Counted from the stretch's first letter, positions 1-60,100 are shown. The stretch is 64,000 nucleotides of DNA from Spirogloea muscicola (GCA_009602725.1 WELB01000023.1:733977-797976); one strand, 5' to 3'. The notes: generated by a model from the sequence alone, not told the origin. Numbers and translations: made by a program.

Positions 1-263
1 TCCCTCATCCTGCCACTGCTGCCAGGCCAGGTCGACAAGACCCTCATCGGCACTTCCGGCCATCCTTCCCCACCCCCCCATCCCTCCTGCTATGGATGCT
101 GCCTCACTCCTCCTCTAGCAGCTCCAGCAGGACAGGATGTCAAGGCCCCAATCGTGGCACTTCCAGCCCTCTTTCCCCCCCCCACCCCTCTATTGCTCCT
201 GGCACAGCTGCTGCCTCACTCCACTAGCAGCTCCAGTAGCTGCTAGATGCTAGCTGCTACGTC

Positions 264-1684: not shown

Positions 1685-3919
1685 TCATAGCACTTCTGGC
1701 ACACCTAGCTGATCGGGAACCCTGCAGTAGTTCAGAGAAGCACTGTGAGGAGCATCTTACATAAGAGAAATGACTTGCCATGGCAAATCTGCTTCTGCTA
1801 CTGTGCCATTACGGAAGGCAGGGCATCCTCGCCAACAGTGGGGGTAGAAATGGAGGACAAACTTGTGATCCTGGGGATTTGGCATTGCCTCATAGACAGC
1901 TGTCGCAACCACTTCACGAGACATCTGCTCCAAGAAATGCAATGCTTATCAGACATGTGGACTGCTAATCCTTGATGTCCAACAACAAGGTGGCCAAAGA
2001 TTAGTAGAAATATTGGCCTTCTGCTTAGCACCAATGCAATTGAAGACAGTTCCCCTGAAATTGTAATAAGATCAACATCACGAGACAAGAGGCTCCAACC
2101 TGAGTCGCCTCCCCGCGAAAGCCTATGTAGTGTATTCTTGTTGTACTACCCCCATGATTGCTTTGAAAGTGCATGCTGAGATTTGCAATGCCCTGGAATT
2201 TTGCATACCTGCACAGCCAAGACATACATCGCCTGAGCTGTTCAGTACTTGAGCATGCAACATGCTTCAGACAAGCTGCTCTCTTTGGTGAGAAATACAA
2301 GTTGCTCTTCAGCAAGCAAAATTCCATGATAACGAGGGCCGATGCTTACTTGGTCACGTACTCTACCTCCCCTCTTGTATTTTCCGCTAACTCCCATTCC
2401 TATGCAGTGCATCATTTGACAGATGTCAGGCAACTCACTCCAAACTTCCTGGTTGTGCTTTATTGCCTGACAACACATGTACTAGGCCTGTGGACCAACA
2501 ACTTATCAGTGACTCAGACTGAGTCGTCACACTTGTGCAATGTGGATTTGCTCCTGACAGGAGGCATGAGAAAACTCTGCAATGACAAGTATTGGCCGCA
2601 AAGTCTGTGCTTTACTGTTGACATCAATGCTGTCATGCAAATATCCAATTTTTTGACCAAATGCCCAGAGTCAGCTTAGAACGGCAATTTCAGAGTAAGA
2701 CCTGTCTGAGAGTCTACTCTTCCAGTCATTATCGTCATCAATGTCTCAGATGCATACAAGGACGCAAAGATATTGCTGTAGCTTGTCATGACCAGATTTA
2801 AGAATCACACACCTGGAGGGGCGGTAAATCCTGAACATTGGAGAAATCAATATCTTCTCGATTGGAAAACCTGTCAGAGCAAACGATGGTCTTCAGAGGA
2901 GCTTCGACAGCATCATCTACAACATATGATATCACCTTCAAGTTGTGAGCTTGACTTGTCTGTTACACCGGGGTCCACTAAATGCTGGAGCTATACTTTG
3001 AAACTCACACTCGCATGCGTGAGGGGCTTGTGCCATCCACGCCCCCCACAATACAGATGCTCTTGATCTTCACATCGGTCGTGAACCTGAGCAGGTATCC
3101 TACTGCTGTCAGTTGCATTAGCTCTTCTGCTGCCTGTAAAAGAAGTGACTGCTGCTTTCCAGCATATACACAAACATGGAGCCAATACCAAAGGAATGCA
3201 GAAAGTGGAGCTTAATGTAAAATTTCATGATTGACTTACGGGACAAAGATAAGGAGCTCAGGATCGTCGTCGTTGCTCTCCAGGCTCTGCAATCAAGCAC
3301 AGACAAAAGTGGAGCGTACGGCTGCAATGACTACAAACAGCAACTTATGACGACCTTGTCTTGCCGTTCACACTGATATGAACTGCTATTATGTGAGAGG
3401 GAGCAAGAGGAGAGGAGAAGGGTCGTCTCACAAAGAGCTCACAGTGGAGAAGTCCAAGCGCTCCTCCCAGCTCTTGAAGACCAATCCAGCACTGCCCTCA
3501 ACAGCCTCATTCAACGCCCGGACCTGGGACAGACGTCAGGTAAGTCTCATACGCCATGTAGCCACAGGGACATAGCATTCTGAGGAGCACTCATCACTGT
3601 CGATGGTCAAATTCTCCCCGCACCTACATGCTCATGCGAAGAAGAGTGAAGAAGCTGTGACATCTGTTCGATACCTCAAGCAGACAGGACCAGAATGTGA
3701 TGCAAGTAGTGGATTACTCATGCCCGCAGTATGGATTGCAGCGAGCACGTCGGCGGTGCGGTGCTAGGCTTCGGAACCTCACGAGTGGCCTACCTTTGGC
3801 ACATCCACGTGGCGGTACAGGGACCAGGCAGCGCCGCAGTCATGCTCGCCGCAGTCGTGGTCGTGCGAGCAGGTTGCGCCGCCGCCAGCACCGCCGCCGC
3901 CGTTGCCGTGGCCCGCCAT
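1685..3919 (-). CDS. PITH domain-containing protein (PITHD1-like), multi-exon
   Basis: Spliced exons read CSHDHDCGEHDCGAAWSLYRHVD / VRALNEAVEGS / LESNDDDPELLIFVP / FTTDVKIKSICIVGG / NREDIDFS / EWELAEN / YAKFQGIANLSMHF...IHYIGFRGEATQ / VYEAMPNPQDHK. The last exon (1721-1685) is tentative. Confidence 0.9.
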
Positions 3920-4099
3920 GGCGGCGCCGCAGCCGCCGCAGCGCGAGGGGTGCCGAGCAAGTTGTGCACTGCGCCGCGCGGTGAGGACTAGGAGGCGAGT
4001 GACCAAGCGAAGGAAAGCGGCTTCTGATATGAAAGAAGCGGAGCTCGGGTTGGCCAGGTGGCGGCGCGCCACCGGCGAAGCTGACCCGGCCCCTCTGCG

Positions 4100-7000
4100 A
4101 ACGAGAGGCGCCTTTCCGGCGGCCAGTCTTTCTGACTTGCGGTTACTATCGAGAGGTTACGGAGAGAAGGCGCGCGGGGCGCATGAATTGAAAAGGGAGG
4201 CCAATTCAAGCCAATACATTGTTCAGGCAGAGTCGAGTGCAGACAAACTTACTGAGCGATAGTTCCTACGGGCAGTATTTTGGGAAAAGTACTTTGGGAA
4301 AGCGCTTGTCGGCCCCTGTTTAGCAGGGGTTACTGAGTAGTTAGTAGCTGCTTTGTTTCTTCTTGTGTGCTTCTTTCTTAGTGCTTCGCCTTAGTGCTTC
4401 GCCTGGCCCCCTTCTTCTTCTTGGAGGTTGTCGAGTGCCGCCCGGTGTTCGGGCATCAATTAGTGACCTCTATGTGCTGACTCGTGGTTACTGAGCGGGT
4501 CAGCTTAGCAGCAGGGTGACGTACATTTGTCAATGTGCTTACCTTTGTACTTGGCCACACATGGCCCTCCATCTCTTAATACACACTCCTTGCGTTCAAC
4601 AGCGTCGAGCGCAGCGCCATCGCCGAGGAGCTGCGAGCGGCCTTCCCGTCCCTCATCCCCTTCTTCCGCCTGGGCTACGGCCAGCCCAGCGACCTTCTAT
4701 GCCGGACAGGGAGTGGCGAGATGGAGACGCTGCAGTCGAGGACGGGCACACGCCAGGCGGATCCTCTAGCAGGGTTTTTCTTCGCGCTGGCTCACAGCCG
4801 CGCTCTCAGGGCCACTGCGGCGGCGCACCCCGGCGTCCTTCTGCCGTCCTACGCCGACGACACCACGCTCGTCGGCAGCCCGGGGGAGGTCTCGGCAGCC
4901 ACCGTCACCTTCCAGCAGCAGCTGGCCGCCCTTGGCATGACCATCCGCCCGGAGAAGTGTACCGCGTGGTCGCCGCGTGTCCTCCCTGCCGCCTTGCCCC
5001 TGCCGCCTGGGTGCCAAACTCCCCCAAGCGGCCTCACCATCCTTGGGGTCCCGTTCGGCACGCCAGCGTTCGTCGACGGGCAACTGCGCGTCCGCCTTCA
5101 GGAGCACCTCCAGCCAGTGGCCCGCCTCCCCGAGCTGCAGGACATGCAGCTGGCGCTTGCCATGCTCAATCGATGCATTGTGCAGCGTCCTCACTACTTG
5201 GCGCGGACGACCCCTCCCTGCCCCGCGGTGCTGGCGGCCTACACCACATTCGACGCGGGGGTCATGGAGGGCGCGGCGGCCCTCATCCGCCACGATGGCT
5301 TCCTTGCCTCGTCAGCCGCTACGCTCCAGGCCACACTGCCCCCTGGCCAGGGCGGCCTCGGCTGCCGCTCGCTCGCGCGCGTCTGCAGGCCAGCATTCCT
5401 CGGCAGTTGGGCACAGGTCGCCACGTCGGTGGCGCAGCGCTTCCTCCATGATGGGCGGCCCCTGCTGCAGCAGGTTGTGGAGGAGGTGGCGACTGGCTCG
5501 CTGCCTTTCCAGGAGGCCCTCCGCTCAGCCCAGGACGGGTTACTCGCGGAGCATCCGGCCCTTGCAGAGAGCGTGGTCCCCTTCGCTCACCTCGCCCACA
5601 CCTCCGACTCGCAGGCGCAGGCGCGATACATGGCTGCTGTGGACAAGGCGACGTTCACGGACACGCTGCAGCTCCTCCCCGCAGGCGACGTGCGCGGCCG
5701 TGCTCGGCTGCTGTCGGCCGCCTCCCCCGGCGCGGCAGCCTGGCTCTCTGCGCTCCCACTGTATGATGCGCTCAGGCTGCCGGACGAGCTGTTCCGCACG
5801 GCCACGCATCGCCTGCTGGGCCTCCCCCCGCCCTGCCTGCTGGGCGTGCTGCAGTGCGAATGTGGGGAGCGGTCGACGGACCCGGCGGAGCTGGCGGCGC
5901 ATCTCCTCCGCTGCGCCACTGGAGGCGAACGAACAGCTGCGCACGACCTCTTGCGTGATGCTATGTTCGGGATCTTTCAGGAGGCGGGCTACACGGTGGC
6001 GATGGAGAACGCCTCGGTCATGCCCATCCTCGAGAGGGCTGACGGACACCATACGCGTCGTGTGGACCTGGTGGCGTCCACGCCGGGAGGTGGCGCGCGG
6101 ATCATAGCCGATGTAGTCACCACCGATGTGGTCGACCGCTCCAACCTGGGGCTCTCTGCCTCGCGGGCCGGCCACGCTGCCTCGAAGGCCGCTCGCTGCA
6201 AGGCGGCCAAGCACTCCGACCACCCACCTGCCGACGAGTTCGTCCCCTTGGCGGTGGACGTGCACGGGGCTCTTGGGTCCCAGTGGCTTGACCTATTGGC
6301 TAGGCTTGCGCGGCGGGCTGTGTCCCGCAGACGCGGCGAGCCAGCCGACTTCAACGCCGCGGGCTCGTGGGCTCAGGTATATCGGATGCGCCTCTCTGTA
6401 TCCCTGCAGCGGTCCATGGCCCACGCTCTGCATCTGCGAGCTGGCCGTGCTCTCGCTGCGGGCTCTGGCTTTCGTCAGGGTGATAGCTTCCCGGCAGCTA
6501 GTCTGTCGGATCTGAGGCTCCTCACTCGTACTTATTGAGTGATCCATCCTCCCCCTGTTTTACCATTGCATCCTCAGGCCCCTTTGTAGCTGCTCACCGC
6601 TCTTAGGCCCCTCTGAACCTTTGTGAACTCTTTTTGGGCTGGCTTTTCGCAGCCCTTGCCCCCATTGGGAGTGCCACTTCTCTCTTCTTCTTGGGCTTCT
6701 TGTACTCTGCTCATTCTTTTTTGGGCTGGCTGTTCCAGCCCCTATCCTCAATGGCCGAGCTCTTTCTTCTTTTTGGGCTGGCTTTGTCAGCCACTCTTCT
6801 CTACGGGCGCGCTCTAAGTCAGGCCTCCGGCTTTCGTGGCGGCGCTCCAGCTCCCCAAGTTAGCTTGTCAGATTTGTTTGTGCTCACCCGTGGGTACTAA
6901 TGTCATCTTAGGTACCTTAGATTAGGTCTCCGTATTATGTAGCATTGTTTAGTCTGCACTCGACTCTGCCTGAACAATGTATTGGCTTGAATTGGCCTCC

Positions 7001-7131
7001 CTTTCAATTCATGCGCCCCGCGCGCCTTCTCTCTACGGGCGAGCACATCCGCTTGTCGGCCCCTCAGGACCTTTCTTCTCGTCATTGGCCTCCCATTCAT
7101 TTTTATGCGCCCCGCGCGCCTTCTCTCGTCA
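4100..7131. repeat. Nested cluster of retrotransposon 3'-end fragments (at least 4 families) in the PITH/LIP divergent intergenic region
   Basis: Peptide termini ASLSDLRLLSRGY (about 4123-4160), LSRGY* (about 4319-4336), SDLYVLTRGY* (about 4462-4494), SDLRLLTRTY* (ends 6538) and SDLFVLTRGY* (ends 6900). Direct repeats 4303-4317/7050-7064, 4413-4424/6683-6694, 6798-6809/7030-7041 and 7077-7084/7124-7131. Confidence 0.9.
4592..6682 (+). mobile_element. 5'-truncated CRE-like non-LTR retrotransposon (family A): RT, CCHC zinc knuckle, restriction-like endonuclease (RLE)
   Basis: Open frame 4592-6538 begins mid-RT at AFNSVERSAI and contains GTRQADPL (QGDPL-like), YADD, LGVPFG, GGLG, CECG-x10-HLLRC...HD, RRVDL...ADVVT...KAAKH and FVPLAVDVHGALG. 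An in-frame TAA lies just upstream at 4577. 3'UTR is about 145 nt. Confidence 0.92.
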
Positions 7132-7264
7132 CGGAATGAACGAGGTCCAAAAGGTCTGAAGGTCTCTTCATAGGGTCTTTTCATCAGCGGCAGCAACTGT
7201 CCTTCAGAACTCCGCCGACCTGTCCTCGCCGCCGCGCTCAGTGGCCGGCGCCGCCGTTGCGGCC

Positions 7265-9875
7265 ATGGCGGGCGGCCCGGCAGCCGCCTCCTGCGCCGCG
7301 CCGCAGCCGCTGGCGCGCTTGTCCTCGAAGGCTCAGAACAATTGGCGCCGTGTGGCCTGCGCCACTCTCACCGAGGAGAGGGCTGCGCCGAGCGCCCGCC
7401 CTGCCGTGGAGACGGCTGGCGGCCGCGACGCTCCGGCAGTGACAGCGCCACTCCGGGCCGGTGAGCTACTTGCCACCGATCTCGGCTCCTCAGCTCCAGC
7501 AACTTGTGAGACGGCCGCTTTGGAGGCGAGCTGCATCATTCACTGGCACTGCCTGCCTTCATGGTCTGCCTACTAGAACTCAGCGTCGGCGTAGCAACTT
7601 GATACCACTAACGCGCTAAGATTGGCCTTCGCGAGCTTTATGTCACACAAGTCCTGCTGCTGCTGTCACATTTGACGAATAGAGAGGTGGATGTCATTGC
7701 AACCCCTGCAACTGCTTCGATGTGTGGTTGCACAGGCGGCGCCCCTGGAGCGGCGAAGAAGCCGGCGTGGCTCCGTCAGAGGGCGCCGCAGGGGGACAGG
7801 TATCAGGAGCTCAAAGAGTCGCTGAGAGACCTGAACCTCAACACTGTCTGCGAGGAGGCCCAGTGCCCAAACATCGGAGAGGTGAGTCGATCCACCTTCG
7901 CTCGAACAGCGGCTGACATTGACCCGGATGCGGGAACACGCTGATCACAACGATGCTCATCCTTGGCGCTCCATAATCTAGTCACTGGCAAGGAGCTGAT
8001 GGCTTGCTCTGTTGTTGGGACCCCCTTATCTTGTGGCAGTGCTGGAACGATGGCGGAGGCCCAGAAGGGGAGGGTGGCGGCGTGGGCACAGCTACAATCA
8101 TGTTGCTCGGCGACAGCTGCACACGGGGGTGCCGGTTTTGTGCGGTGGCGACAAGCCCATCCCTGGCGCCTCCTGATCCCATGGAGCCTGAAAATACTGC
8201 ACGCGCCATTGCAAGATGGGGGTGCGTGCAGACTTTGCAGCACAAGCTTTGAGTCTTGCGCGTCTACAATGTCAGCATCAAAATAGTAGTGTACATTGTG
8301 ATCATCTACCAGGCATTATAGAGTTTCGGAAGGATGCCCAGGAGCATTGTGCTCCCTTTTCAACTCAGACACTCCACAGCAGAGTAGCCTGCATCATTGT
8401 TTTCATTTCCACTACTATATGAGCAAGTGCAGGTAGCTCTTACCATGCGGTCAGTCAGGATCGAGGCGCCTTTGTCCTTTTTGTGAGCTGCGCTTCAGCC
8501 TGTCGTACTTGAAGCCTGAGCTTAGGTTGCTTCTCTGCAGGGTTGGTTATGTGGTGCTAACAAGTGTAGATCGCGATGATTTGCCTGATGGGGGAAGCGA
8601 GCACTTTGCACGAACAGTACGCACCTTGAAGGTACACAATCGGACCATCTAATATGGTGCCTCTATGTCCAAATATGTATTGTTTATCTAGCAAACAGTA
8701 TTTCAAGTCTAAGGTACCAGCATGCTTGTAGTCTCTGTGCTGATGTGTTGAAAGTCTTCTGAGGGTTCTGTTGCACTTTGGTGCAGGCAGAGGCACCGCA
8801 CATACTGGTGGAGTGCTTGGTGCCTGATTTTCGAGGTGATATGGACGCTGTCATCAATGTAGCCCAGTCAGGTCTCGATGTCTTTGCGCACAACATCGAA
8901 ACCGTTGCCAGGCTGCAGCGACCGGTTCGTGATGCACGAGCAAAGTAAGCCGCTACCTGTGCTAATTGCTGTGCTGCAAGTCTTGCATGCCTCCCATATC
9001 ACAGGCGCTTCCCAATAAAGATGGGTGCTCTCGATCTAGTTAAGGGCTTTACCATGTCATCAAAGCATGACCTCTGAGAAGGACAGCTTGCTACATGCAG
9101 GGGTTCTGTTGTCACAAAGGCAGGCCTTGGGGGTTAGCTCTATTGACCAGCCGCAAATTGTGTGCATGGCAGTTACGAGCAGAGCTTAGCTGTCCTCAAG
9201 GCAGCCAAGAAATGCAAGTTGGGGATGGTGACCAAGTCCAGCATTATGCTCGGGCTTGGTGAAAAAGACGAGGAGGTCAGGCAGACAATGCTGGACCTGA
9301 GAAGCGCGGAGGTGGACATTGTCACACTCGGTCAATACCTACAGGTTTGCCTCTCAAACAGGCTCTTTCACATTGTATCATCTCCACAAGCAGGCACCAT
9401 CGATTTCCTTGATGACTAGGTAGGCTTACAGTCGTGCTGCTGAGGTTGTTCCATGCTAGATAAATTGACCTTGTTCAAAGGAAGGACACTGCTCATATCC
9501 TTCTAGGACACTTTGACCAGCTTTTTCCGTCACCTGAAGAAGCTCTGGATGTGTGCAGCCTACTCCCTTACACTTAACTGTCAAGGAGTTTGTCACACCG
9601 GAACATTTTAAGCATTGGCAGGAGTATGGCTTGTCAATTGGCTTTCGCTACGTCGCCAGTGGCCCCTTGGTAAGATTGACTCTTGTTCTATACATGAGTC
9701 TGAGAAGTCACACGGCCAGTATGAGTGATTCTTGGCTAGCAACACTGCTACATGCAACATAACATAACGGTGCTGCTTCTCCTCCTGTGTGCAGGTCCGA
9801 TCCTCGTATCGGGCAGGTGAATTCTTTGTGGAAACAATGCTCCGTGGTGGCCATGATTACACCACACATAAGTGA
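7265..9875 (+). CDS. LIP1: Lipoyl synthase (radical SAM), probably the plastid isoform; 8 exons
   Basis: [72 protein letters not shown]; Ala/Arg-rich transit-like N-terminus. Confidence 0.95.
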
Positions 9876-20914: not shown

Positions 20915-23215
20915 CGGAGAATTGAGTGTGTATTGGGTGCTGGAAGGTCTGAGTGGCTAACTACAAAGGCAAGCACATTGACGAATGTACACATAGGGGG
21001 TCCCAGCGAGCCCGTATTTCTGCTGCCGGGGGAAATCCCGTCAGCGGTGACGCTGACCCAGCCGCTGACGCTTCGGGCCGCCTGCCGAGCTGAGCGACTG
21101 CAAGACTCAGATGGGCAATGCGCGCATGAGATGGAAGCAAACAGCTCGTCCGTTGTAAGGCAATGGCTGTGAGAGGCCAGCCCAGAGGAATGTACAAGGG
21201 CTGCAAGGGCAGGAAGCCGCTAAAAGCAGGATTCTATTTGCCGTGACTCCTGCAAGTGGGCTCTCAATAAACTCTAGTCAGCAAGTGCGGATCAGAGTGA
21301 GTAGAGAGCGAGAAGCGTCCCCCTGAGGTGAAAGGTAGGCCAAGCCGAGCACGTCCAAGCGCTGCGCACTTGACTTAGTCGCGGATCTCGGTAACGAGCA
21401 TGATATCCGACACCTTTATTCGCCTTCATCACTTGACACTTCCATGGAGAAGAGAGAGCGCGATTCGCGTATATTGAAAAGGGAGGCCAGTTGGGGCGAT
21501 GATTATGACGGCAAGACCCGAGGCACCCCACGTCCCCTCTGCAGCCTGCCATGACGGCCTTCAAGCCGGGACCGGCCCCCTGGCCAGCCCCACGCACCTG
21601 CGCTGGCTGTGGGCCTTCTGGCTCGGAGGCCCGTGGCCAGCCCAGAAGTGGCTGTGCAGCCCATCCTGCTGCGACCATCGCCGGCCTGCTACGGTAGCAC
21701 CGGCCAACACGCCGTCACTGAACGATGCGCTAGCGGCCATGCACAGAGCTGTGCTCCCTCTCCAAGCCCAGGACCCTTGGATCATCACCATCCTTGAGCT
21801 TCAGCCAGGCAGGCCTGCGCAGCCAGTCGCCTACTCGTAGGCCCAGCCTAATGCTTGTGTAGCCTGCTCGCAGAGCCCTGAAACGTCAATTTCATATCCA
21901 GCACAACTTCGAGCTCGTGCCATTGCCGTCCATGCATGCATCGTTCACTTACAGCGCGGCCAGGCCAAGACGCAATTATCTGGTAGCGCAATGAGTGAAA
22001 GTCTTTTCGTCCGCCCAGATGCGTGGGCCACTGCAAGAGGTGATGCGCACCAGGTCGACGTGCCATGTGCCCGTCAGCAAGTCGGCACGGTGCCGTGGAC
22101 CTCTGCACGACTTGGTAGGCAGCCTCTTGGAATAGGCCGAAGGTGCCGTTGCAATAAAGCACCGTAATCGGCTATTGCTCGTGGCCATGCTGCGCAGCGC
22201 AGCATGTGCGCCGCAGTATAGGGTGGACGATTGCGCTTCTACAAGGACCTACAACGTGCTCATTGCGTGCTCACCACATGGAGAACGTTGAGGTCGCAGG
22301 CGAGATGGAATTGAGCCTCTTGCTTATAGCGGGCGGGTGGCAAGTCCCCAGCCTGTGCCCCCTGTACCGTAATCCTAAAGCTCCAGGCTTGGGTTGGCAA
22401 GGAAGCCTTATAGATAAGGCTATGCTGGACGTAGCCTTAATGAGGAGCGAACACTTTTAGAACGATGTAATTCTTCCATAAGGGCGATGGCAATGTCGTG
22501 CCGCCCATTAGACTGAACCAGGTCCAAAGAGGTCAGAAGGCGAGCACCACTCAGGAAAGAAAGGGACCACTAAGGATGGCGACTCACCTGATCAGCAGCC
22601 GCAAGTCGGAATGTCTAGCAGCCAGACAACAAGTAAGCTCTTCTGAAGGGGCGATGGCCAGGAAAGGCCAGCCCAAAGGGAGTTGACAAGGTCCACAAGG
22701 GGCCTGAAAGAATAAGGTAAACCAAAGACACAGCTCCTTACAAAGTAAGTAACAGCTTTCTCAATGTAAGACAGTAGCTGTGAGAGGCCAGCCCAAAGAA
22801 AAATGACTCTTCCAGTAGAGGGCGATGGCTGTCATTGAAGAAGTGGCACTCTCAATGGGGGCAAGGGCTGCAAAAAGCCAGCCCAAAAAGAATTGACAAA
22901 GGTTGTCATTGGCCAAAGCATAGAAAAGAAAGAAGAAAACCCAAAGCCCAAAGGAATGAACAAGATCGGAGAGAAACGCTCTTTCCATGTAAGGCAGCTT
23001 TTGTGAGAGGCCAGCCCGAGGAATGTACAAGGGCCGGAAAGGGCAGGGCTGTGAATGGCCCGCGAAAAGAGAGAAGCTCTACTCAAGGGGGCGATGGCTG
23101 TGGAAACAGGCCCAATGCAGTAAAACAAGAGAAGCAGCCCCACGGCGGGCGAGGGCTGTAAAGGAAATTGCCGCCCATGTAGAAGTGGCTCTCCCGCTAT
23201 AAAAGCCAGCCCGCC
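20915..23215 (-). repeat. Cluster of CRE-like retrotransposon fragments, including a decayed endonuclease-region copy and a tandem array of 3' ends
   Basis: Family-B 3'UTR at about 20915-20992. SDPHLLTRVY* at about 21263-21300. Degenerate FGLFQEA...ADGH..R.DLV at about 22050-22145. SDLRLLIR at about 22585-22612. Repeated GGCTGTGAGAGGCCAGCCC-type units at 22640-23215. Confidence 0.8.
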
Positions 23216-23379
23216 ACGAGAGACCTCTTGGAGCGCCAATAGAACGTCAATGGCGTCGGGTTCGTGGCCGCACCAGCCGCCGCCGCCGTTTTCACGGTTC
23301 TTTCCACCGTTTCCATCCCAGTACAGTACTTGTCCACTACCGGTCATTCGACAAAGCTGATTTCATCGCGTAGGAGCTG

Positions 23380-39809: not shown

Positions 39810-39861
39810 CGCTCGGGAGGCTGCAGCTGCGCAGGAGCTGAGCCACTGACTCGGCCCAGGA

Positions 39862-40275
39862 GCGGAATGGAGTGTGGATTGACTGATGGAGAAAGAGCTC
39901 GCCCATTGAGGATAGGGGCTGGAACAGCCAGCCCAAAAAAGAATGAGCAGAGTACAAGAAGCCCAAGAAGACGGGGGCCAGGCGAAGCACTAAGGCGAAG
40001 CACTAAGAAAGAAGCACACAAGAAGAAACAAAGCAGCTACTAACTACTCAGTAACCCCTGCTAAGCAATCGCAGGTCAGAGAGGCTATGTTCCTGGAAGG
40101 AGGGCTCCAGTGGCCAAGTGACATGGCAAGCGTCGACAGACGTGCATGACCTGCTGCTAAGCTGACCCACTCGGGGAACCACGAGTCCGCACGTAGAGGT
40201 CGCACTAATGCCCAAATACCTGACGGCAATTGACAAGCCCTTTGTGCCACCAGCTAAAGCTCGACCAGAAGCCTA
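39862..40275 (-). repeat. Family-C 3' end nested in a family-B 3' end
   Basis: SLSDLRLLSRGY* plus UTR (about 40097-39890) is near-identical to 4319-4424 joined to 6695-6766. It interrupts the family-B UTR between GCCCTCC and ATC...CACACTCCATT. Confidence 0.85.
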
Positions 40276-40435
40276 GCAAATCCACTTCGTGGTTGGGACA
40301 GTACAAGGCAGCAAGTAGTGGTGACTAGTCGATGCCCGAAAACAGCATATACCGCGCGAGCCCAGCCAATCTTCAGCTGCACCGGCGCTCTCTCGCAGCC
40401 CCGCCGTCGGCAATGCTGCAGCCCGCGCCGCGGGC

Positions 40436-41877: not shown

Positions 41878-42874
41878 TTCCAGGCATGAGCAATTGAGCG
41901 AAGGTAACGGGCTCAGCATGAAGGCTGAACAGTTAGTCTCACCCATATGTGCTCATCACCAACGCTTCCTACTGGAAGATGTTGGACAAAGCGATGGCGC
42001 TGCATCATGGTTGTACTCAGGCAGAGAAGGATATGCATAAGCAATTTCCAGTTGGCAGGCAATGTTCAACGAGTTGAACATTGCAGCAGCTTCCAGCCTG
42101 AAGCCATGGGTTCGTCAAGGTTGGATGCCACTCTGGGCTTGCAGCTGAGATCGGCAAGCAGCAACTTCTGCTGGAGCATGGCAAAGTCGAAGAGTCGGAC
42201 CTGAATGCCCATCCGAGCCCTTGATAGGGCTGCGCAGCTGCATGGCGGAGGGCTTGCCTATCAGCTAGTGAAGGGTGCTTTGTGATTCCTCTTGCCACCC
42301 ATTGCCATCTTTTACTCCACTCTTCTATTCAGCTTGTGCTTGTTCTGGGCCGTCCTCATGAGCAGGATGGCTGCCAGGCGAGAGGCATGGGTGGTGGTGC
42401 ACCTTGCCCAGGATTTTTCCGAGAGACAGCAGCTTAGAATTTCTCTATCAAACATTTTAGACATAGCTCAGAATCCATGCCTAGTAGAAGGCACACATAC
42501 ATGGCTTGCTTGACAAAATGCGAGCAGATTGATTCTAAATGACGACTATACACCCAATCAAGGGATGCTCAAGTTGATGCCACAGAGCAGGGGTAGCACC
42601 AGGAATAATGAGGAGGGGAGGAAAAGGTTGGCAATGTTGAGGCTGGGGACTAGGGCTATCGTGCAGCAAAGAAGATGGGAGGTGACACTACAGATTGGAA
42701 GGAGGGCCCGTGATGACCAGCACAATGCCTTACACAAGGCAACAAATATTTCCAGTTGGCAGAGGCTAGGATTCTACTGATGATGGCTTGATTGATGTGG
42801 AAGCAAGTAAAACCTGGCATGGAAGAATAGGCCAATGCAGCTAAACGCAGCTCCAGCGACATTCAGCAGTCCTC

Positions 42875-43455
42875 AGGACGGAGGGCCTGAGTGGCCAAGT
42901 ACAAAAGCAAGCACAATATTAAATACATCACCTGCTGCTAAAGTGACCCGCACAGTACCACGAGTCAGCACGTAGAGGTCGTTAATTGATGCCTGAATAC
43001 AGGACGACAATTCACAAGCCCTCATGCCACCAGCGAAGGCTCGACTAGCTTTCTGGTGCAAAGCATGAGCCTAAAAGAATGAACAAGGTCTGCCAGGGCC
43101 GGAAGGCGAGGGGACGAGGGCGAAGGCGAAGGCGAGCAAGCGAGGGCTCTGACCAGCCAGCCCAGAAAATGGACAGGGACAAAAGTGGGATACACCAATC
43201 CCGACGAACTTCCAGAGAGAAATCAGAAGCAGCAGCTAAAGCGCGGCCTGCATCGCCTGACTCCGGAGAGCTGTTTCCCGTCGCTGACTCGTAGTTACTG
43301 AGCGGGTCAGCTTAGCAGGGTACGATTCTCCAAGACGTCAGCAAGTGGGCGCTCCATTAACCTCTGGTCAGCAAGCGAAACCTCAGCTTTGCTTAGCAGC
43401 AGGTGATGTACATCTGTCAATGTGCTTGCCTTTGTACTCGGCCACTCAGGACCTC
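42875..43455. repeat. CRE-like 3'-end fragments in both orientations upstream of the peroxiredoxin
   Basis: HQKASRAFAGG...NDLYVLTRG (minus strand, about 42880-43061). GCTGACTCGTAGTTACTGAGCGGGTCAGCTTAGCAG (plus strand, about 43283) resumes at about 43391 after an inverted insert. Confidence 0.8.
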
Positions 43456-43657
43456 CATGACTCATCAACACCCGATATAATACTTTCTTCATCATTTCCC
43501 TTCTCTCTCTGCCCTACGTGAGCACCCTGACGTCTCAGCCTCCTTTTATTCTTCCGATTCTTTAATATCAGCAGCCGCTTTTGTTTTATCCAGCACGCTT
43601 CTTTATGAGCACAGCCGCGCTGAGCTGCCGTGCTTCTCCTACCCCGCCCTCCCAGCC

Positions 43658-45424
43658 ATGGCTGCCGCGCTTTGGGTCCTCGCCGTCGCCGCCGCAGCCG
43701 CCACCGCCGCCGCCGCCGGCGCTGCCGAGGCGCCGCCCGCGTCCNCGCCGCCGCTGGTGGGCGGCAAGGCGCCGGACTTCGAGGCGGAGGCGGTGGCGGG
43801 CGGCGCGGTGGTGCGCCTGCGGCTGTCGGACTACCAGGCGGCGCGCAAGTACGTCGTCCTCTTCTTCTACCCGCTCGACTTCACCTTCGTCTGCCCCACC
43901 GGTGAGGCCTTCCTTCCGCCGTCGCCGCGGCCGTTGCTGCTGGCCCCTCCCGCGCCTTGTGGTCGCCACCCCAGCGCCTGCTTTGGTCACTGCACTGGGC
44001 GCTGAACCCCACGACAGACCAGCACGCGTTGTCAGCCCCCTCCTCTGCGCCGCCGTCTGCCTCGTCGGCCACACCTTCGGGAATTACGTGGGCCGCACTC
44101 GGCCTGTCCTGGCCGGCCAGCTGAGCTGTGGTGTTGGAGCTGCTGGACTTGGCAGTCTCCCCTCACCCATCCCGCAGGACCTTGCAAGCAAAGAGTGGCC
44201 AACAGTGGGGTCCGCCTGGCACGGCGTGCCTTGCCCTTGCCTTGCCTCTGACTGTGTTGAGGAGCGGAATGGGGTCTGGCCTTGCAGAGATCACGGCGTT
44301 CAGTGACCGGCACCAGGACTTTGTGGACCACAATGCGGAGCTCTTGGGCGTCAGCGTCGACAGCGTGGTGAGTATCGCAAGAAGCTATTCCAATTGCTAC
44401 ACTGTTTGCCCTTGTGCTCCGTCAGCCTGTGTTCATAGCTGGAAGTGGCTCCTGTAAAATTGACTTGTCGTTCTAGTCAAAATACACATACCAATCCCAG
44501 CTATTTTCCAGCCTATCTAGCCTATTGAGGCTGTTCAAAAATCAATATGTCAATTTTGGCACTTAGCAAGGTCTTTGCTCATCTGGGTGTGATGCGGCTC
44601 CATTTGTCCTTCCGCTGCTCGTTTTATTGGGCTCACAGGAGCTGATTCAGCACCTTTCAGACCACTTTAGATGACTATACCATGCCGACTTGCAGCCGCT
44701 CTGAACACTACTGGCGTGCTTCCTCATTGCCCTTCGCAGTCTGAAGGCACTTTCATGTGGCAAAGAGATCCTTATCTAGGGTCCTGTTCTCCTTCTTCCA
44801 GTTCTCGCACCTTCAGTGGACCCTGACAAAGAGGTCGGAGGGAGGAGTTGGCGACCTCAGATATCCACTGGTGTCTGACCTGACCAAGAGCATCTCGCGC
44901 TCGTACGGCGTGCTCCTTCCGGACCAGGGGATTGCCTTGAGAGGCACCTTCATCATCGACCCCGAAGGCGTCATACAGCACTCCACCATAAACAACTTGT
45001 CCCTGGGGAGGAGCGTGAATGAAACCCTCCGGATGTTACAGGCCATCACCTATGTCCAGGTAATGCAAAGATTTTCAGTATGACTTAAAGTCCTGAGGCT
45101 TGTCGAATAGTATGTCAAGAGCATCTGTTAAGCTTGAACACACACACCTCTGGGTTTCTTAAGTGACGAAGCCACCAATTCTGGCGTCATTGGCTGTTTC
45201 CAGCAAGTTTGAAGCGGATATGTTACCTTAGCCAGTGTTGAACAGCACCGTAAGCTGTGCTGCTGTATGCGTGCTCACTATCCAACTCAAGGATGCAGGA
45301 GAATCCAGAGGAAGTTTGTCCAGCTGGGTGGCAGCCAGGAGAGAGGACAATGAAGCCTGACCCAAAACTCAGCAAAGATTACTTCCATAGTGTGCATAGC
45401 CAACAGGCTGCTGCAGCTTCTTGA
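43658..45424 (+). CDS. Typical 2-Cys peroxiredoxin, 4 exons
   Basis: [50 protein letters not shown]. Confidence 0.95.
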
Positions 45425-50374: not shown

Positions 50375-50930
50375 CTTTCGAGGCCCCTTCGGACCATGTC
50401 CGTTCTCGTCGGGCTGGCTTTCCACAGCCCCTCGCCTTCTCTCCTTGTACAGTATTGGCATGAATTGGCCTCTCTTTCATGCGCCCCGCGCGCCTTCTCT
50501 CTTGGATTAGCTTACTTTACATTTATTGGCGCGCAGTGCCCAGTGGGCCCCTCGCGAGAGGACCTGGCCAGGTGACATGGCCTTCTGGGACCGAGAGCCC
50601 GTTTGCCGTTGGCAGTTGCACTAGACGCTGGCGGTCACCAATGGCAGCCTTCCGGCCCTTCTTCCGGCCCCTTCGGACTTTGTCTCGGCTTCTGGGCTGG
50701 CCTTTCACAGCCGTCGCCCCCGTTTGAGAAGACCGTTCTTCCGATCCTTTTACTGGTACTGGCGACGAGCGTCCTCCAGCTCACGTGCCCTGTTCGTGCT
50801 TCCCAGCTTGTGCTGGCTTGTCACCAAGTACACCTTACAGGTGGCTGTGAAAGAAGAGAGCTCTTGTGAAAGGCCAGCCCCAATTGAGAATGGACAAGGT
50901 CCGAAATGGTCGGAAGGGGCAAACGACCAA
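50375..50930. repeat. CRE-like 3'-end units upstream of SGF29
   Basis: GGGCTGGCTTTCCACAGCCC at about 50411; family-D end ATTGGC...CATGCGCCCCGCGCGCCTTCTCT at about 50454-50501; further units at about 50694 and 50843-50882. Confidence 0.75.
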
Positions 50931-51968
50931 TTTAATTTCCGCCACACAAAAGCACTCGTGTTGGTACCTCCACTTTTTATCCTGGGAGCCCCGACTTTCT
51001 CGTCACTGCTCGCCTTGATCCACTTTGTGCTTGCAGTGAGTAAACTTTTGCCTACCCGCTTGCTCGACGCATGGGCAGCCGCTTCATGCGCACATACCCG
51101 GGGCCCGGGTCCCTTCCTGCTGCTGCTGCTGCTGCATGAAATACTAATATTGATGCAGCAGCTATGACTGCTTACTTCGACATGTTCTGCACTGCTGCCG
51201 TAAGTGAGAACTACCATGGAGTACTGCATGCACAATGAGTTGACATGTTTGCTCACAATGAACTGCACCTGAATGGGGTGCATGGCGGTGCCATTCTTTA
51301 CAGGAACAGCAACTAACATTGTGCTCAATGTGATCTTCAACTCGGTGTGCATGTGCTCCTTCTTACATAGTGAACTCATGTAAAGCTGGGCACCATGACA
51401 TTAACAAGATCCTCTTTGTGCAATTTGTGAGGTTCAAAAGCTTCTGTCCGTCTTATGGGCATGGCAAAAAGACAAGCAGAATGATGTCCATAGTGGCAAA
51501 CACTCGATGCTTTCCCTGCAAGTCATCCCTCTTCCAACCCTCACCAGCTCTCCCTCTTTTGTCTCTGCCCAAGTGTTGTCACATTCTTCCTCTCTGTTCT
51601 TCCTCCCGTCGTCCCTCGACTTGCAAACCCCCTCAGTCCTCTCACCTTTTTGTCTCTGATAAGAGCCGCCTCTTTGCGATATCATCATGACACTACCTGC
51701 CATGCTCTCAATATATTAAGACAAGCAACGTATGATACCTAAGACAAGCACTGGAAGGGGCAAAGGCAGCCGCCAGCGCTTGGCCTAACGGATGAGCTCA
51801 CTCCATTCTAAGATGTTGACAAGGAGCTGCCACAGATTTAGACACACAGAGACGATTGCAGTGCCAGGTGCCATGATGTATGAGGTCAAAGATTAACCAT
51901 CAAATGTCCGATTTTTTGAGTGGCAAGAAAAAGTGCCCACAATGGCATTAGATAAGCAATGCAGTCGT

Positions 51969-52833: not shown

Positions 52834-53834
52834 CTTCGCTCTGCCTCTGGCAAAGACGGCCTGCGAAGCGCCTTTGTCCCCCGGTGGCGGATCGCGGCAG
52901 ACACCAAAGACCTGCCGGGCCGGCGCGGTCAGGAGCGCCGCAGTCGCTGCGCGGGCAGGAGGCGCCGCCGCCGCCGCTCGACACGCGCAGCCGAGTGGGG
53001 TACGGCGCGAAACTGAAACCCTCGGATTGAAGAGACACGAGATGTGGAAGGGGCCCCCGCTTGACGGCTGTGCCGCTCCCGGCAGTCAGCTCCTGGCCAA
53101 TACAGTAAGCGGTTCCCTGAGGGGGGGGGGGGGGCCCGGTAATGCGAAATGCATGAGGAGAATATTGGCTCGGTTTGGTCTCACAGTCTATTTTCCATGT
53201 CCGGTGTGCTCCTTTCTCGATAAATCCGCGTCAAGTGGCCCACCATCCCCGCTTGCCGCAGGGGAAATGCAAGGACGAGATACCCCCCGGCCCCCCGGCG
53301 CCGCCCATTCCCGGGGCGTTATCCACGGCCTGCCTGCCGTTGCTGGTGGTGGCTGGCGAGACGGGTGGCCGGCGAGAGCGCCGTCGTGGGAGAACGCGAG
53401 ACGTAACGAAAAGGGTGGGGAGAAGAAATAGAGCACTTCCAAACGGGGAGTGGCGACGCGGGTCCCCGTGGCCGCACGATGGGGCTGCGCTCCCCGGGAG
53501 GGGGCATCCTGCCGTCGGATGGCAGGACCCCTATCCGGCTCCCCCAGCGGCGCCACGGCGGCGGCTGCACGCTGGCCGTCGTGGGGCCCGCCGGAGCGAA
53601 GCGAGCGGCCGTCAGCCGGGGATCGTCATTGGCGTTCGTCGTTCCCCTCAGCGGCGGCCTTCGTCGGGGCGTCGTCGGGGCGCAGCTGCTGGCGCCGCTA
53701 AGCCCGACAGTGGTGGCCCGAGACGAGCCCCCCGCTAAGACGGGACGAGCGCTACTGGCTCCTCGGCCCTGCCGTCGTTACCCCGGTGCTCCATGAAGCT
53801 CAGAAGAAGCTCAGTGAAGCTTTTCCCAAGGCTG

Positions 53835-54388
53835 AAATTGGCCTCCCTGTCCTTTGCTTCTCTCTCATTTGCATGCGCACCGCGCGCGCCTTTCTTCCAA
53901 AGTGGGCGAGGGCTGTGCAAAGCCAGCCCGAAAGAGGGAAGGCGCGCGGGGCGCATGAAATGAAAGAGAGGCCAATTCAAGCCAATACATTGTTCAGGCA
54001 GAGTCGAGTGAAAGAGAGAGTGACTATTCCAGTAGAGGGCGATGGCTGATTGGCCACCCCATGAACAGAAATTGACAAGGTCCGAAGGGGCCGTAAAGCT
54101 CAAAGCTGACTTAGGTCCAGCTTAAGGAGGGATCGTGTATTAGAAAGAAATGTAGGCCAAATGGCCAGGTACAAAGGCAAGCACATCTAAAAATCTACAT
54201 AACCTACAGCAGATTGACCCGCTCAATAACCACGGGTCAAAACATAAAGGTCACTACTCGATGCATGAATACTAGATGCCAGGAACGGAGCCCTTCTGCC
54301 ACCTACTAGAGCTCGCCCAGCTTTCTGGTGCAAGGCACTAGCCTGAGCACGCTGCAAACAGGCCGAAACTCGACGTCGCAAGAGCGAC
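53835..54388. repeat. CRE-like 3'-end cluster between GDCH and aldolase
   Basis: Family-D end at 53937-54009 flanked by GAAAGAG (53930-53936/54010-54016). Family-B-like LRRRVSACLQRAQASALHQKAGRAL...SDLYVLTRGY* on the minus strand at about 54388-54223. Confidence 0.85.
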
Positions 54389-54537: not shown

Positions 54538-55835
54538 ATGTCTTGCTACGTCGGGAAATATGCTGGTGAGCAGCGCAGCCCTGGCCGCGGCGAACTCGCG
54601 CCGCCATCCGCGGTGCAATCGGCCGCCTCCGCCGCCGCCCCATTGCGTCGCAAATGCTGGTTGTCTCGGAGACGCGACTGCCATTGGATTGCCTTCACGC
54701 CCTCGACGTAAAGCAAAGCTAAATAGGTCCTCCGAAGCGGATGCGGCCCACTGAATCGCCTCCTCGGATGCTGCACCGGACGCCGCAGAGGAGCTCGTCA
54801 AGAATGCCAAGTACATCGCGACGCCCGGGAAGGGCATCCTGGCGGCGGAACGAGAGCACGGGGACCATTGGGAAGCGCCTGGCCAGCATCGGCGTGGAGA
54901 ACGTGGAGGCCAACCGGCAGGCGTTGCGCGAGCTCCTCTTCTGCACGCCCGGTGTGCTGCCGTTCCTCAGCGGCGTGATCCTGTTCGAGGAGACGCTGTA
55001 CCAGAAGACCATGGCGGGCAAGCCGTTCGTGGACGTCATGCTCGAGGGCGGCGTCCTCCCGGGCATCAAGGTGGACCTGGGCGTCGTGGACCTGGCGGGC
55101 ACCAACGGCGAGACGACGACGCAGGGCCACGATGGGCTGGCCGGCCGGTGCGCCAAGTACTACCAGGCGGGCGCGCGCTTCGCCAAGTGGCGCGCCGTGC
55201 TCAAGATTAGCGACTTCGAGCCGTCGGAGCTGTCGATCCAGTTGAATGCGCAGGGCCTGGCGCGCTACGCCATCATCTGCCAGGAGAACGGCCTCGTGCC
55301 CATCGTGGAGCCCGAGATCCTGGTCGACGGCAGCCACTCGATCGAGAAGTGCGCGGAGGTGTCGGAGCGCGTCCTGGCGGCGTGCTACAAGGCGCTCAAC
55401 GAGCACAAGGTCCTGCTGGAGGGCACGCTGCTCAAGCCCAACATGGTGACGCCCGGATCCGAGGCCGCCAAGGTGGACGCCGAGACCATCGCCAAGATGA
55501 CCGTGCGCACCCTCCAGCGCACCGTCCCCTGCGCCGTGCCCGGCGTCATGTTCCTCTCCGGCGGCCAGAGCGAGGAGGAGGCGACCAAGAACCTCAACGC
55601 CATGAACCAGCTCCAGACAATCAGGCCGTGGACGCTCTCCTTCTCATACGGCCGCGCGCTGCAGAAGACCACCCTCTCGACGTGGGGCGGGAAGCCCGAG
55701 AATGTACAGGCTGCACAGCAGGCTTTCCTGGAGCGGGCCAAGGCGAACTCAGAAGCCACGCTGGGCAAGTATGGCGGCGGTGCAGGCGGTGCTGGTGCCG
55801 CTGAGAGCCTCCATGTGACTGGCTACAAGTACTAG
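54538..55835 (+). CDS. FBA: Cytosolic class I fructose-bisphosphate aldolase; apparent +1 frameshift near 54849
   Basis: [29 protein letters not shown], then after an extra [10 protein letters not shown]...GARFAKWR...VPIVEPE...[13 protein letters not shown]...GYKY*. Confidence 0.95.
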
Positions 55836-57172: not shown

Positions 57173-60100
57173 TTACTTGGGCGCCGTGGCATGCTTGTCA
57201 TCAATTTCTGGTAGGGGTATCTTCCAGTAATTCCACGAGTTGTAATCCTCCTGCAGGTATAACGGTACAGGGTCCAGAGATGCCAAATGCTCAACAACTA
57301 CGGAAGAAAGACTGGCACTGCGACCTTCGCTTTAAAATATCCATTACCTAAGAGAAGTAGCTTCCCACTGGAAAGCAAGGTCACAACTATGTAATCTGCA
57401 TCAACTGCATTGCCAATTTTGACTGTGGTGAGTACACTTACAGCCTCAGCAGAATTGACAGGAGGGAACATATCGTCAACAAGGTCATGCAATGTTGTGT
57501 ACGACCTCACGTCCACTCGCTTGTTGACCACAATCTCTCCCTGCAATGCAGAAGTCCAGGTAGCAAGTGCCACTGTGAAAGCCCATACAAACTGCACAGA
57601 CCATAAAATCTTGCTGCCTATGCATGTCTTCTGCTTCCAAGAGCTTCAAGCTCTGCAATGGAGTATATGAGGCATCAACTGTACTGGGCACGACCCAGCA
57701 CTTCAGAGCAAAAGCTGCAGTCAAATACCTTGGGATTGATCGTATAGATCTTCCCCTTAGGAATCCCCACAGCCTCATAGCTTATTTCGTCAGTGTCGCG
57801 GTTTCCAAAACCAGCATAGAAAGGGTTGACATCATTTGGAAACAAAGCCCGAATCGCCTGCACAAGTGCACGTGACAACGGGTCTGAGCATTGACTTGAT
57901 ATTGCAAGTAGTCAGCTGCCCATAACCTGCCACCATAACAGCAGATTTCACAAGAAGCACCAAGGAGGACAACCGGTGATCAAGACACTGCTGCTCACCT
58001 GCAGGCAGTTGATCTTAAATTCGTGAGGCGCCCTTCGTATGACTGCCAGCACAAGAATCTTCATGAGCTGATCTGTGTAGCTGCCCTGACACACCTTTTT
58101 GCAGTAATCTTCGCACAGATGTATGACTCCAGAGGACTAGGATATGGGCCAAACTACAACTTGTAGTGATGCACAACCCACTTGCACTGAACTCTGAGGA
58201 GATACTTTTGGAGGTGAGCAAGGAGAACCTTCACGATAAAGAGACGGAAATAGCCCATCAGGCGATATTACGACAGGTCCTTCCGGCAAGCCCATGCCAT
58301 CCTGCAAGAGCTTGTCAGATACTAGACTTAGAGGAGCAGCAATGTACTTAGAGGGCACCTATTTATTGCCATGCATCTTTCATGAATGCATCTTTCCAGC
58401 CAGGCTGGATAGCTCACACATGTGCGCAGGAAACTGTATGGCAACCCGTAATGTTCAAGCAAGCAGCATCATGGAGGTTGTTGGACACTAACTTGTTTCA
58501 GATTAAAAAGAAAGGTACGAGTAAGGTAAGCTTGGGAGATAGCCCGTGCACTCAGGAACATGAATTCGTAGCCATTCTCCTGCAAGCACAGGTAAACGAT
58601 CTGAGCACCTCGATAGACCAGCACGAGCATCACGTAACATTGCCTGATACGACAACAGTCAAATGTGACAATGTGGATGTCACATATGCCATGCAAGAGC
58701 ACCAAGAACGTGCATGTGGTGCCTTCGTCTGTGCAAACTTATTTGCATCTGCATTTGACTAATCGATCGTCATCTCGAAGTGAATTACCTTAATAGCTGA
58801 GAAAAGGCGAGCCACACCCAGCTGAGACCAGTCCCTTCCAACTAGGGGCATCACTTGCCCAAGGAGGTCAGACCTGCACAGAGAGGTTCATCAGCAATGC
58901 CAGGCAACTATGTTTCTTGGGATTGTCTTGAAGTCCCACTTCATTGCATACATAAGAGCTCTAGGTGCTTTCACTTAAGCAAATTATCAGCAGTTGAGCA
59001 ACATGAGTACCTGGTTATTGTGCCATCCACGTCTGAAATGACTATCCTTGTTTTCCACTTCCACAGATACAATGATGCTTCAACCTGTGACAGCAACCAA
59101 CTGTGCTGCAATGAAATAGGATATGTAGATTGTCACGCAGCACAATATCTTGCACAGAAAAAATGACCTTTGGCACAAATAGCCGATACTACAACAGATT
59201 GTGATAGTGTACAGACCTGCTGGCGACCGAGGACGCGAGTGACGAAGTTAAAGTGAATGCAGCTCTTCCCCTCCTTCAAATTCAGCAATTTTAGCTGCTC
59301 CGAAGTTGGCAAGTAAGAACGCACTTTCCTTTTTCTGAAGTGGAATCCATTTCTTCCAGCGAGTAGGTCCTGTACAAGGGGACTGTCGTGGGCGGTCCCT
59401 GTCAAAAGAGCAACGGTATAACACGTAAGTCCAGATTACCCTCTACGAGGTGCTGCATCTCTTCTCTACACACTTACATTTGCCATCTTCTATTTGCTGA
59501 CTTCCCAGGCATCATGTACAATCAAGAATGGCTCATAGGATAAGACACAGCAACAAAGAATTATTGCTCCATGCTCCATGCTTACCAACAGCAGCCAGAA
59601 GTGCAGCTTGAGAGATTCGATCTGCCCGTGAGGGAGGGCTTCCAGTCCCTCCAAACGGCCAGAGCTTCCACTGGCTGCTTGCAGCAGCAGTCGGTCTCGC
59701 AGGCACGATCGCCAGTGCAGATGTGCTGGGTGCTTCTGGTTTCTCCACTGCTATGGAGCCATCTGAGGCACCATCTGTCACAGGGATGAACCTGCCGAAA
59801 GCAAGCATGCCCAACAGGAGGGGCTGCACCGTATGCCACGGATAATACTTGCCCCCAACTCTTACAACCAGCAAGTTGCTGGACGTCACCTCTCTGTAGG
59901 AGCTGACGAAATGCTCAAGTGTGACCACCTTGGAGGAAAATGCTGCTGCTGCTTCTTTCGAACCCATTCCTTCCACAAGTAGGTCTCTGCAGAGAGAGAG
60001 CTCCATCCCAGTGCCTGACAATTGACTGATCTCAGCTCCTGCACCAGCATGCGTCAAGTCACTTTCTTGTTCCTGCCCCTCCAGCATGTCACTATGCGAC

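Follow-up and report, generated by a model that had tools for sequence, protein, structure and literature searches.

Between two genes of the zygnematophyte alga Spirogloea muscicola lies a block of about 3 kb in which pieces of mobile elements appear to sit inside one another. What kind of element built this block, in how many insertions and in what order? A reading from the sequence alone had proposed repeated recent target-primed insertions into earlier copies. Here, we analysed the block within a window of 64,000 nucleotides, the whole stretch of DNA under study, and compared it with contigs of four public runs, X4 to X7. We conclude with good confidence that the block is a stack of about nine 5′-truncated copies that likely inserted into each other by target-primed reverse transcription; they belong to several subfamilies of a single non-LTR retrotransposon lineage, whose protein carries a restriction-like endonuclease (RLE).

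Organisation of the nest

The nest stands between a minus-strand PITH-domain gene and a plus-strand lipoyl synthase gene, and likely occupies their divergent upstream region. Its pieces (A to F and H), its target-site duplications (TSDs) and the neighbouring exons are as follows.

2028-2345, minus: left neighbour exon, PITH domain, pointing away from the nest (Pfam PF06201, E=3e-10)
4095-4160, plus: piece E, end of a LINE ORF (..SLSDLRLLSRGY), interrupted immediately upstream of its stop codon by the antisense D copy (tblastn E=0.003; C-terminus; continuity over TTAC)
4161-4248, minus: antisense 5′-truncated copy of subfamily D, 97.7% identical to 6949-7033; TTAC at 4157-4160 and 4249-4252 is a probable 4-bp TSD
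4253-4302, plus: stop codon and probable 3′ UTR of piece E, from the reading frame; a second copy is absent from the window
4303-4317, plus: TSD1, left copy, 15 bp, exact repeat at an element end
4318-4412, plus: piece C, first part, with last ORF codons and 3′ UTR (98% to 40067-39965, minus)
4413-4424, plus: TSD2, left copy, at most 12 bp (repeat; joint 4410 to 6684 in three runs)
4425-4589, plus: piece A, ORF end and 3′ UTR of another subfamily, fused to B (91% to 26332-26169, minus)
4591-6682, plus: piece B, 5′-truncated LINE (native sequence aligns from 4591 in X6 and ends at 6681)
6683-6694, plus: TSD2, right copy, exact repeat at an element end
6695-6764, plus: piece C, second part, up to its TC tail (98.8% to 39971-39890, minus)
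6765-6797, plus: piece F, first part, a short 3′ end that carries the shared hairpin motif and is fused to the end of C (77-82% to the C and B 3′ ends)
6798-6809, plus: TSD3, left copy, the final 5 bases of which are shared with native D (the alignment of X7 record 32 starts at 6805)
6810-7029, plus: piece D, ORF end and 3′ UTR of a further subfamily, homology 6805-7034 (0 differences in 230 nt to a 2185-nt X7 contig; C-terminus)
7030-7041, plus: TSD3, right copy, whose first 5 bases also match the D tail (repeat, contigs)
7042-7049, plus: last bases of piece F (continuity with C-type ends, p=0.026 and 0.035, two of two references)
7050-7064, plus: TSD1, right copy (repeat; bridged by X4 record 6)
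7065-7076, plus: continuation of the older UTR cut by TSD1, with a shared GGCCCCT..GACC motif (continuity test)
7077-7131, plus: mini-insert, the last 39-43 nt of subfamily D (7085-7123; 91% to 6991-7033) between the TSD4 copies 7077-7084 and 7124-7131
7132-7165, minus: piece H, possible antisense fragment of the shared UTR motif, found by eye; its blastn match is to itself only
7612-7941, plus: right neighbour exon, lipoyl synthase N-terminal domain, pointing away from the nest (Pfam PF16881, E=2e-11)

The antisense D copy at 4161-4248 is a fifth insertion that was absent from the sequence-only reading. The call draws on the continuity of piece E across TTAC (p=0.0095 and 0.027, below 0.05 against two of the four window references), because the 4-mer itself has a chance of 0.09 once slop is allowed.

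Repeat pairs at element ends

The four direct-repeat pairs first described, at 4303/7050 (15 bp), 4413/6683 (12 bp), 6798/7030 (12 bp) and 7077/7124 (8 bp), are exact at these positions, and each is a maximal repeat. Between 4050 and 7250, eight exact repeats of at least 12 bp were seen, against a mean of 0.77 in 200 Markov-1 resamplings. Repeated 8-mers are common in the same region (179 seen, mean 125 in such resamplings), and the TSD4 8-mer has a third copy in the window, at 50998; TSD4 therefore carries weight by its position alone. For all four pairs, significance comes from their position on element ends. We fixed these ends from contigs of the public runs, without reference to the repeats, using the best 24 of 1592 loose ends and 32 of 28,653 contig pieces. 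Among the loose ends listed for X4, 126 contigs break at 6681 and 181 at 7034; B aligns from 4591 in X6 (record 17), and D aligns over 6805-7034 in X7. Allowing a slop of 6 × 6 bases, the chance of a repeat at such ends is 3.6e-7 for TSD1, 3.7e-6 for TSD2, 5.8e-6 for TSD3 and 6.7e-4 for TSD4.

What the pairs enclose agrees in part with the first description. TSD1 had been said to bracket the whole block; it spans 4303-7064, but the mini-insert falls outside it. TSD2 does split family C as claimed, but encloses two elements, A and B, rather than one RT element. The brackets proposed for the other two pairs hold, with TSD3 around the D homology and its X4 loose end, and TSD4 around the D-like mini-insert. 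Three of the four TSDs start with TC, whereas TSD1 starts with CG. The proposed TSD lengths of 7-15 bp match two further 7-bp TSDs, at an A copy (26850/26159) and a D copy (54016/53936), but the antisense D adds a probable 4 bp, and with microhomology present at both junctions the lengths have to be read as maximum values. In TSD3, five bases at the end of the left copy and five at the start of the right one also match native D; microhomology from the element thus accounts for as many as 10 of the 12 bases, leaving a true stagger of 2 to 12 bases; in TSD4, four plus one of the eight bases are common to D. TSD lengths judged by eye overstate the cut stagger.

Continuity of the interrupted sequences provides a second line of evidence. 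We joined flank, one repeat copy and opposite flank, and scored the product against window references, which were picked after the motifs had been seen, with the right half shuffled as control. Deleting the TSD2 insert and one repeat copy restores C, with a score of 140 versus 65 and 80 for the two halves (p=0.0005). The TSD3 result given above for piece F is modest, as is that for TTAC, and TSD1 gave p=0.003, 0.012, 0.065, 0.13 and 0.16, below 0.05 for two of five references. Family C had been described as contiguous near 40060-39890, and a paralog indeed lies at 40067-39890 on the minus strand, 98% and 99% identical to the two halves and with one CTT unit fewer at the TSD2 site. The joint from 4410 to 6684, that is, C without the insert, occurs in X4, X5 and X6 (three of the four runs). 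These are paralogs, not alleles, and give a direct empty site for TSD2 only. Among the contig pieces listed, the bridged junctions are the right-hand ones only (7050-7131), and X4, which bridges them, may be the window's own source: X4 record 6 (7008-7245, 0 differences) runs through the right TSD1 copy and the mini-insert into unique flank. X4 also holds a second version of the flanks, at 3500-3850 on the left (about 86% identical) and at 7387-7429, probably the homeolog.

It could be argued that the repeats are UTR motifs shared between elements rather than TSDs, or that the block is a misassembly of high-copy repeats. Five of the eight repeats of at least 12 bp are indeed shared UTR motifs or an internal tandem, LINE UTRs here contain further copies of the TSD1 core GGCCCCT, and two B bases (4702 and 4758) are almost unsupported in X4 contigs. 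Such an account is nevertheless very improbable, given that all four pairs sit on independently defined ends, that removing one insert with one repeat copy restores C, and that a contig spans 7050-7131 without a difference.

Encoded protein and lineage

The 2.1-kb piece B encodes a reverse transcriptase (RT) and an RLE with a predicted R2-like fold. The frame 4580-6538 is open for 652 codons, of which the element's part starts at 4591-4592, inside the RT; from 4592 to 6538 it reads through the C-terminal half of the RT (YADD), a CCHC knuckle and the RLE. The YADD and RQ.DPL motifs are those of a non-LTR type RT. The Pfam RVT_1 match (E=1.5e-6) falls under the curated cut-off because the domain is cut by the 5′ truncation point. 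The knuckle and a PD-(D/E) endonuclease motif, in relaxed form, occupy residues 422-507. A structure model built from 29 sequences (pLDDT 88.1) aligns to R2 over 676-715 columns; for this predicted model, all seven PDB matches with E≤0.001 are R2 proteins, and L1 ORF2p appears at E≥0.011. With RT, endonuclease, 5′ truncation, a fixed 3′ end and TSDs, and with LTRs absent, the block elements are non-LTR retrotransposons with a restriction-like endonuclease. Base 4758 changes the conserved QGDPL motif to QADPL; at 4702, 4758 and 4777, B differs from nearly all X4 contigs, by private change or assembly error.

Among named proteins, gene models of Spirogloea muscicola come closest (78% over 40% of the query), followed by proteins of Klebsormidium nitens, Closterium and Porphyridium. 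Full-length relatives are 1015-1068 aa long and 40-44% identical. The RT and linker motifs of the window element are, as we take them, CRE-like. Neither the protein nor the structure matches to the window ORF include a named CRE protein. The strict SLACS/CRE endonuclease pattern, as printed in the portion of PMC12857005 used here, matches 0 of 41 proteins, and with relaxed spacing it is found in the window ORF and in 4 of 40 relatives. Membership of RLE clades is decided by RT phylogeny (PMC4640811, in part). The element works like an R2/CRE-type LINE; we do not file it as CRE, since spliced-leader targeting and poly(A), trypanosomatid features in the relevant part of PMC12278014, are not found. 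A literature search, with Repbase, subscription journals and the genome paper and its supplements (which may list the lineage) outside its scope, returned no description of such a LINE lineage in streptophyte algae, where it is probably undescribed. The processes are already known, and what is new is probably the lineage.

Subfamilies, 3′ ends and abundance

Families A to E had been treated as separate repeat kinds. They share the same ORF C-terminus and are subfamilies of one lineage: the terminus was read in eight of ten stretches examined (E, A, B, D and copies located 26 kb, 33 kb, 40 kb and 54 kb into the window), the other two being the block's C piece, which is too short, and one A copy, which did not parse. 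A 720-bp copy of subfamily A at 26880-26160 (minus), with a 7-bp TSD, contains part of the endonuclease. In X4 to X7, a second B-like subfamily of about 88% identity covers 5261-5890.

In its 3′ UTR, B has a GGGCTGGC..AGCC hairpin motif followed by a TC tail, and the motif recurs near the 3′ ends of C, F and others. It is conserved, but its stability is ordinary (z of -0.8 for the B and C ends); we rejected a special stability of the hairpin, with z between -0.5 and -2.5 and one of seven below -2. All 3′ ends are pyrimidine, with poly(A) in 0 of the 15 ends listed. In four 3′ UTRs, the words TCTC, TCTT and TTCT reach 47.9 per kb on the sense strand, 3.4-fold more than in the rest of the window (13-15 per kb), and 0 on the antisense strand. 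The hairpin motif and TC tail were absent from the 3′ regions of seven related loci (of 28), and the 3′-end pattern of B had 0 matches in metagenome contigs. Two full-length relatives, L001 (3725-3900) and L002 (3637-3800), have ATTGTT-like repeats in place of the TC tail, so lineages vary in how they end.

In X4, the summed contig depth is about 165 in the flanks, 64,000 at 4823 (mid-B) and 2.5 million at 6587 (B 3′ end); summed depth is not copy number, but it shows a steep 3′ bias, which points to many copies, mostly 5′-truncated. B differs from an X6 contig at 5 of 1300 bases (99.6% identity) and D from its X7 contig at none of 230 (100%), and these near-identities place both in young subfamilies.

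Two composites within single repeat pairs

The sequence-only reading equated one TSD with one insertion of one family, and here it fails. TSD2 encloses 165 bp of A (4425-4589) and B, with one base between them, and TSD1 encloses C and a 50-bp end, F, later split by D. In each composite the pieces are co-oriented, directly joined and held inside one TSD pair, the left TSD copy is exactly where the upstream piece begins, and neither the A/B nor the C/F inner junction contains a copy of the TSD start. Four of the five TSD-flanked inserts are co-oriented with their target, and the antisense insert has the shortest repeat. Later insertion of A at B's 5′ junction was rejected, since the two pieces would then be separated by a TSD copy. 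We also rejected a relative dating of A and B from their departures from the majority sequence, as other copies have the same A variants.

A template jump in one event is the likeliest origin of each composite, at about even odds. The enzyme would finish a short or broken first RNA (B, F) and jump onto a second RNA, from another subfamily (A, C), at its 3′ end; with the jump preceding the 5′ joint, one TSD pair would surround both pieces. R2 jumps templates in vivo (PMC3414825, in part), and part of PMC2104539 describes one-TSD chimeras of 5′-truncated retroelements in Magnaporthe, with SINE and LINE parts within one 14-bp repeat pair. A tandem from double insertion should carry an inner target duplicate, according to the section of PMC5932611 on tandems. 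Against an end-to-end jump, A is short by about 4-10 nt of tail compared with copies at 26160 and 20918, a loss that target-site deletion predicts.

This clipped tail bears on strictly serial nesting, the sequence-only model extended to nine events, in which the second insertion lands on the first one's TC tail with a duplication of 0 or 1-2 bases and a small deletion of A's tail. Tails are preferred targets, as at 54010-53934, where a D copy with a 7-bp TSD lies on the 3′ end of a different element, and the same section of PMC5932611 reads Drosophila tail-to-internal tandems as repeated insertion. However, other insertions leave visible repeats of 4-15 bp (seven cases) where both inner junctions lack any, and in both composites the upstream piece begins exactly at the left TSD copy. 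Serial nesting is, in our judgement, possible but somewhat doubtful. Head-to-tail joints are common in X4, where 8 of the 15 joints listed (of 311) run from a B or D 3′ end into a 3′ piece, and short spacers occur at 7 of the 12 head-to-tail joints listed (of 207). These spacers fit both jump and serial models because microhomology can absorb most of a TSD, and spacer length was rejected as a model test, as microhomology hides TSDs.

Alternatively, A+B and C+F may already have stood in tandem at donor loci and been copied from one transcript as spreading units (3′ transduction). X4 head-to-tail joints at a depth of 300-870, versus about 90-165 in single-copy flanks, could mean repeated composites, although summed depth does not equal copy number, and such ends form chains in two Spirogloea gene models (P0001 and P0003). 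Yet neither the 4589 to 4591 joint nor the C to F joint has a second copy in the window, and the listed joints differ in their truncation points, as expected of independent events. We regard such read-through mobilisation as unlikely.

A model of the insertion history

The proposal of repeated recent target-primed insertion into earlier copies is borne out by the RT and R2-like endonuclease, the depth rising toward the 3′ end, the TC tails and the 99.6% (B) and 100% (D) identity to contigs of other runs. Target-primed reverse transcription is established for R2-like elements and would be the route taken here. The pyrimidine tail of the RNA may pair with a nicked TC-rich site, and the richest local source of such sites would be the sense strand of earlier 3′ UTRs. 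Since sense-strand 3′ UTRs offer most TC sites, new copies would pile up in the same orientation. Reverse transcription would mostly end early, with the cDNA joined through short microhomology. E would have come first, followed by C+F at TSD1; A+B would next have entered C, and D would have entered F, in either order, with the antisense D and the mini-D standing outside this sequence of events. On the template-jump reading, we infer a history of seven events, or nine if the composites were made in two steps.

Setting of the nest

The window contains ten LINE 3′-end clusters covering about 13% of its length, delimited at 267-680, 4095-7200, 20918-21300, 22640-23230, 25900-26880, 32943-33643, 39860-40330, 42870-43460, 50376-50745 and 53830-54385. 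Nine of the ten lie at most 400 bp from one of 16 GC-rich islands, compared with 35% of element-free sequence at up to 600 bp (binomial p=5.5e-4 at 600 bp). The islands stand in for gene starts, with Pfam supporting a gene at or behind a few (4 of 26 frames matched in one scan). The clustering may reflect targeting or selection, and could affect promoters. Tail-to-tail inverted pieces stand beside head-to-tail chains at 32943-33643, 53830-54385, 42870-43460 and 7065-7165.

Outside the clusters, the window holds an intronless class-I aldolase frame (54723-55832, plus), a 1008-codon lipin frame (59536-62559, minus) and exons for zf-UBP (33824-34198, plus), AhpC-TSA (43481-44002, plus) and PCNA (36481-36963, minus). 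Four single N bases occur at 27415, 33833, 43745 and 54389, three of them in GCC-repeat tracts at GC-rich islands. LINE fragments already corrupt gene models: P0001 and P0003 are chains of LINE ends, one fused to an aquaporin-family (PF00230) stretch, and are likely annotation artefacts.

Comparison with known systems

As a single locus, the nest is ordinary transposon archaeology, if unusually legible; beyond itself it points to an RLE-type LINE lineage that is young and very abundant in a zygnematophyte alga. Should the composites prove to be template jumps, this genome would contain an extensive natural archive of such events by an R2-like enzyme.

Like the CRE-group RLE LINEs (CRE1/2, SLACS, CZAR; MoTeR1, FoTeR, Cnl1), the lineage has a single ORF, of about 1000-1070 aa in full-length relatives. 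The order of RT, CCHC knuckle and RLE, the many 5′-truncated copies and the variable TSD size are also shared, as far as described in parts of PMC12278014 and PMC12857005. Unlike that group, the window element is dispersed beside gene starts rather than in spliced-leader genes or telomeres, its insertion targets being earlier LINE 3′ UTRs between protein genes and not spliced-leader RNA genes. It also ends in a TC tail rather than poly(A), has a very high copy number and leaves the strict endonuclease pattern unmatched. R2 (R2Bm, R2Tg) is the best structural match to the window ORF and shares the template jumping proposed above, but identity is 14-16%, and R2 targets one 28S rDNA site.

Zepp of Coccomyxa belongs to the L1 clade and has an AP endonuclease. 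It resembles the present case as a green-algal LINE in clusters of nested copies (PMC3446292, in part), but forms one cluster of 1.5-42 kb per chromosome, unlike the ten small clusters of several subfamilies in 64 kb here. Lastly, the chimeric retrotranscripts of Magnaporthe (MINE; WEIRD-MgSINE-MGL) and U6-L1 likewise consist of two or three co-oriented 5′-truncated pieces, directly joined within one TSD pair, in the account excerpted from PMC2104539. In those chimeras the 5′ part is usually a full-length cellular RNA, whereas the composites described here start with a truncated 3′ end from a sister LINE subfamily.
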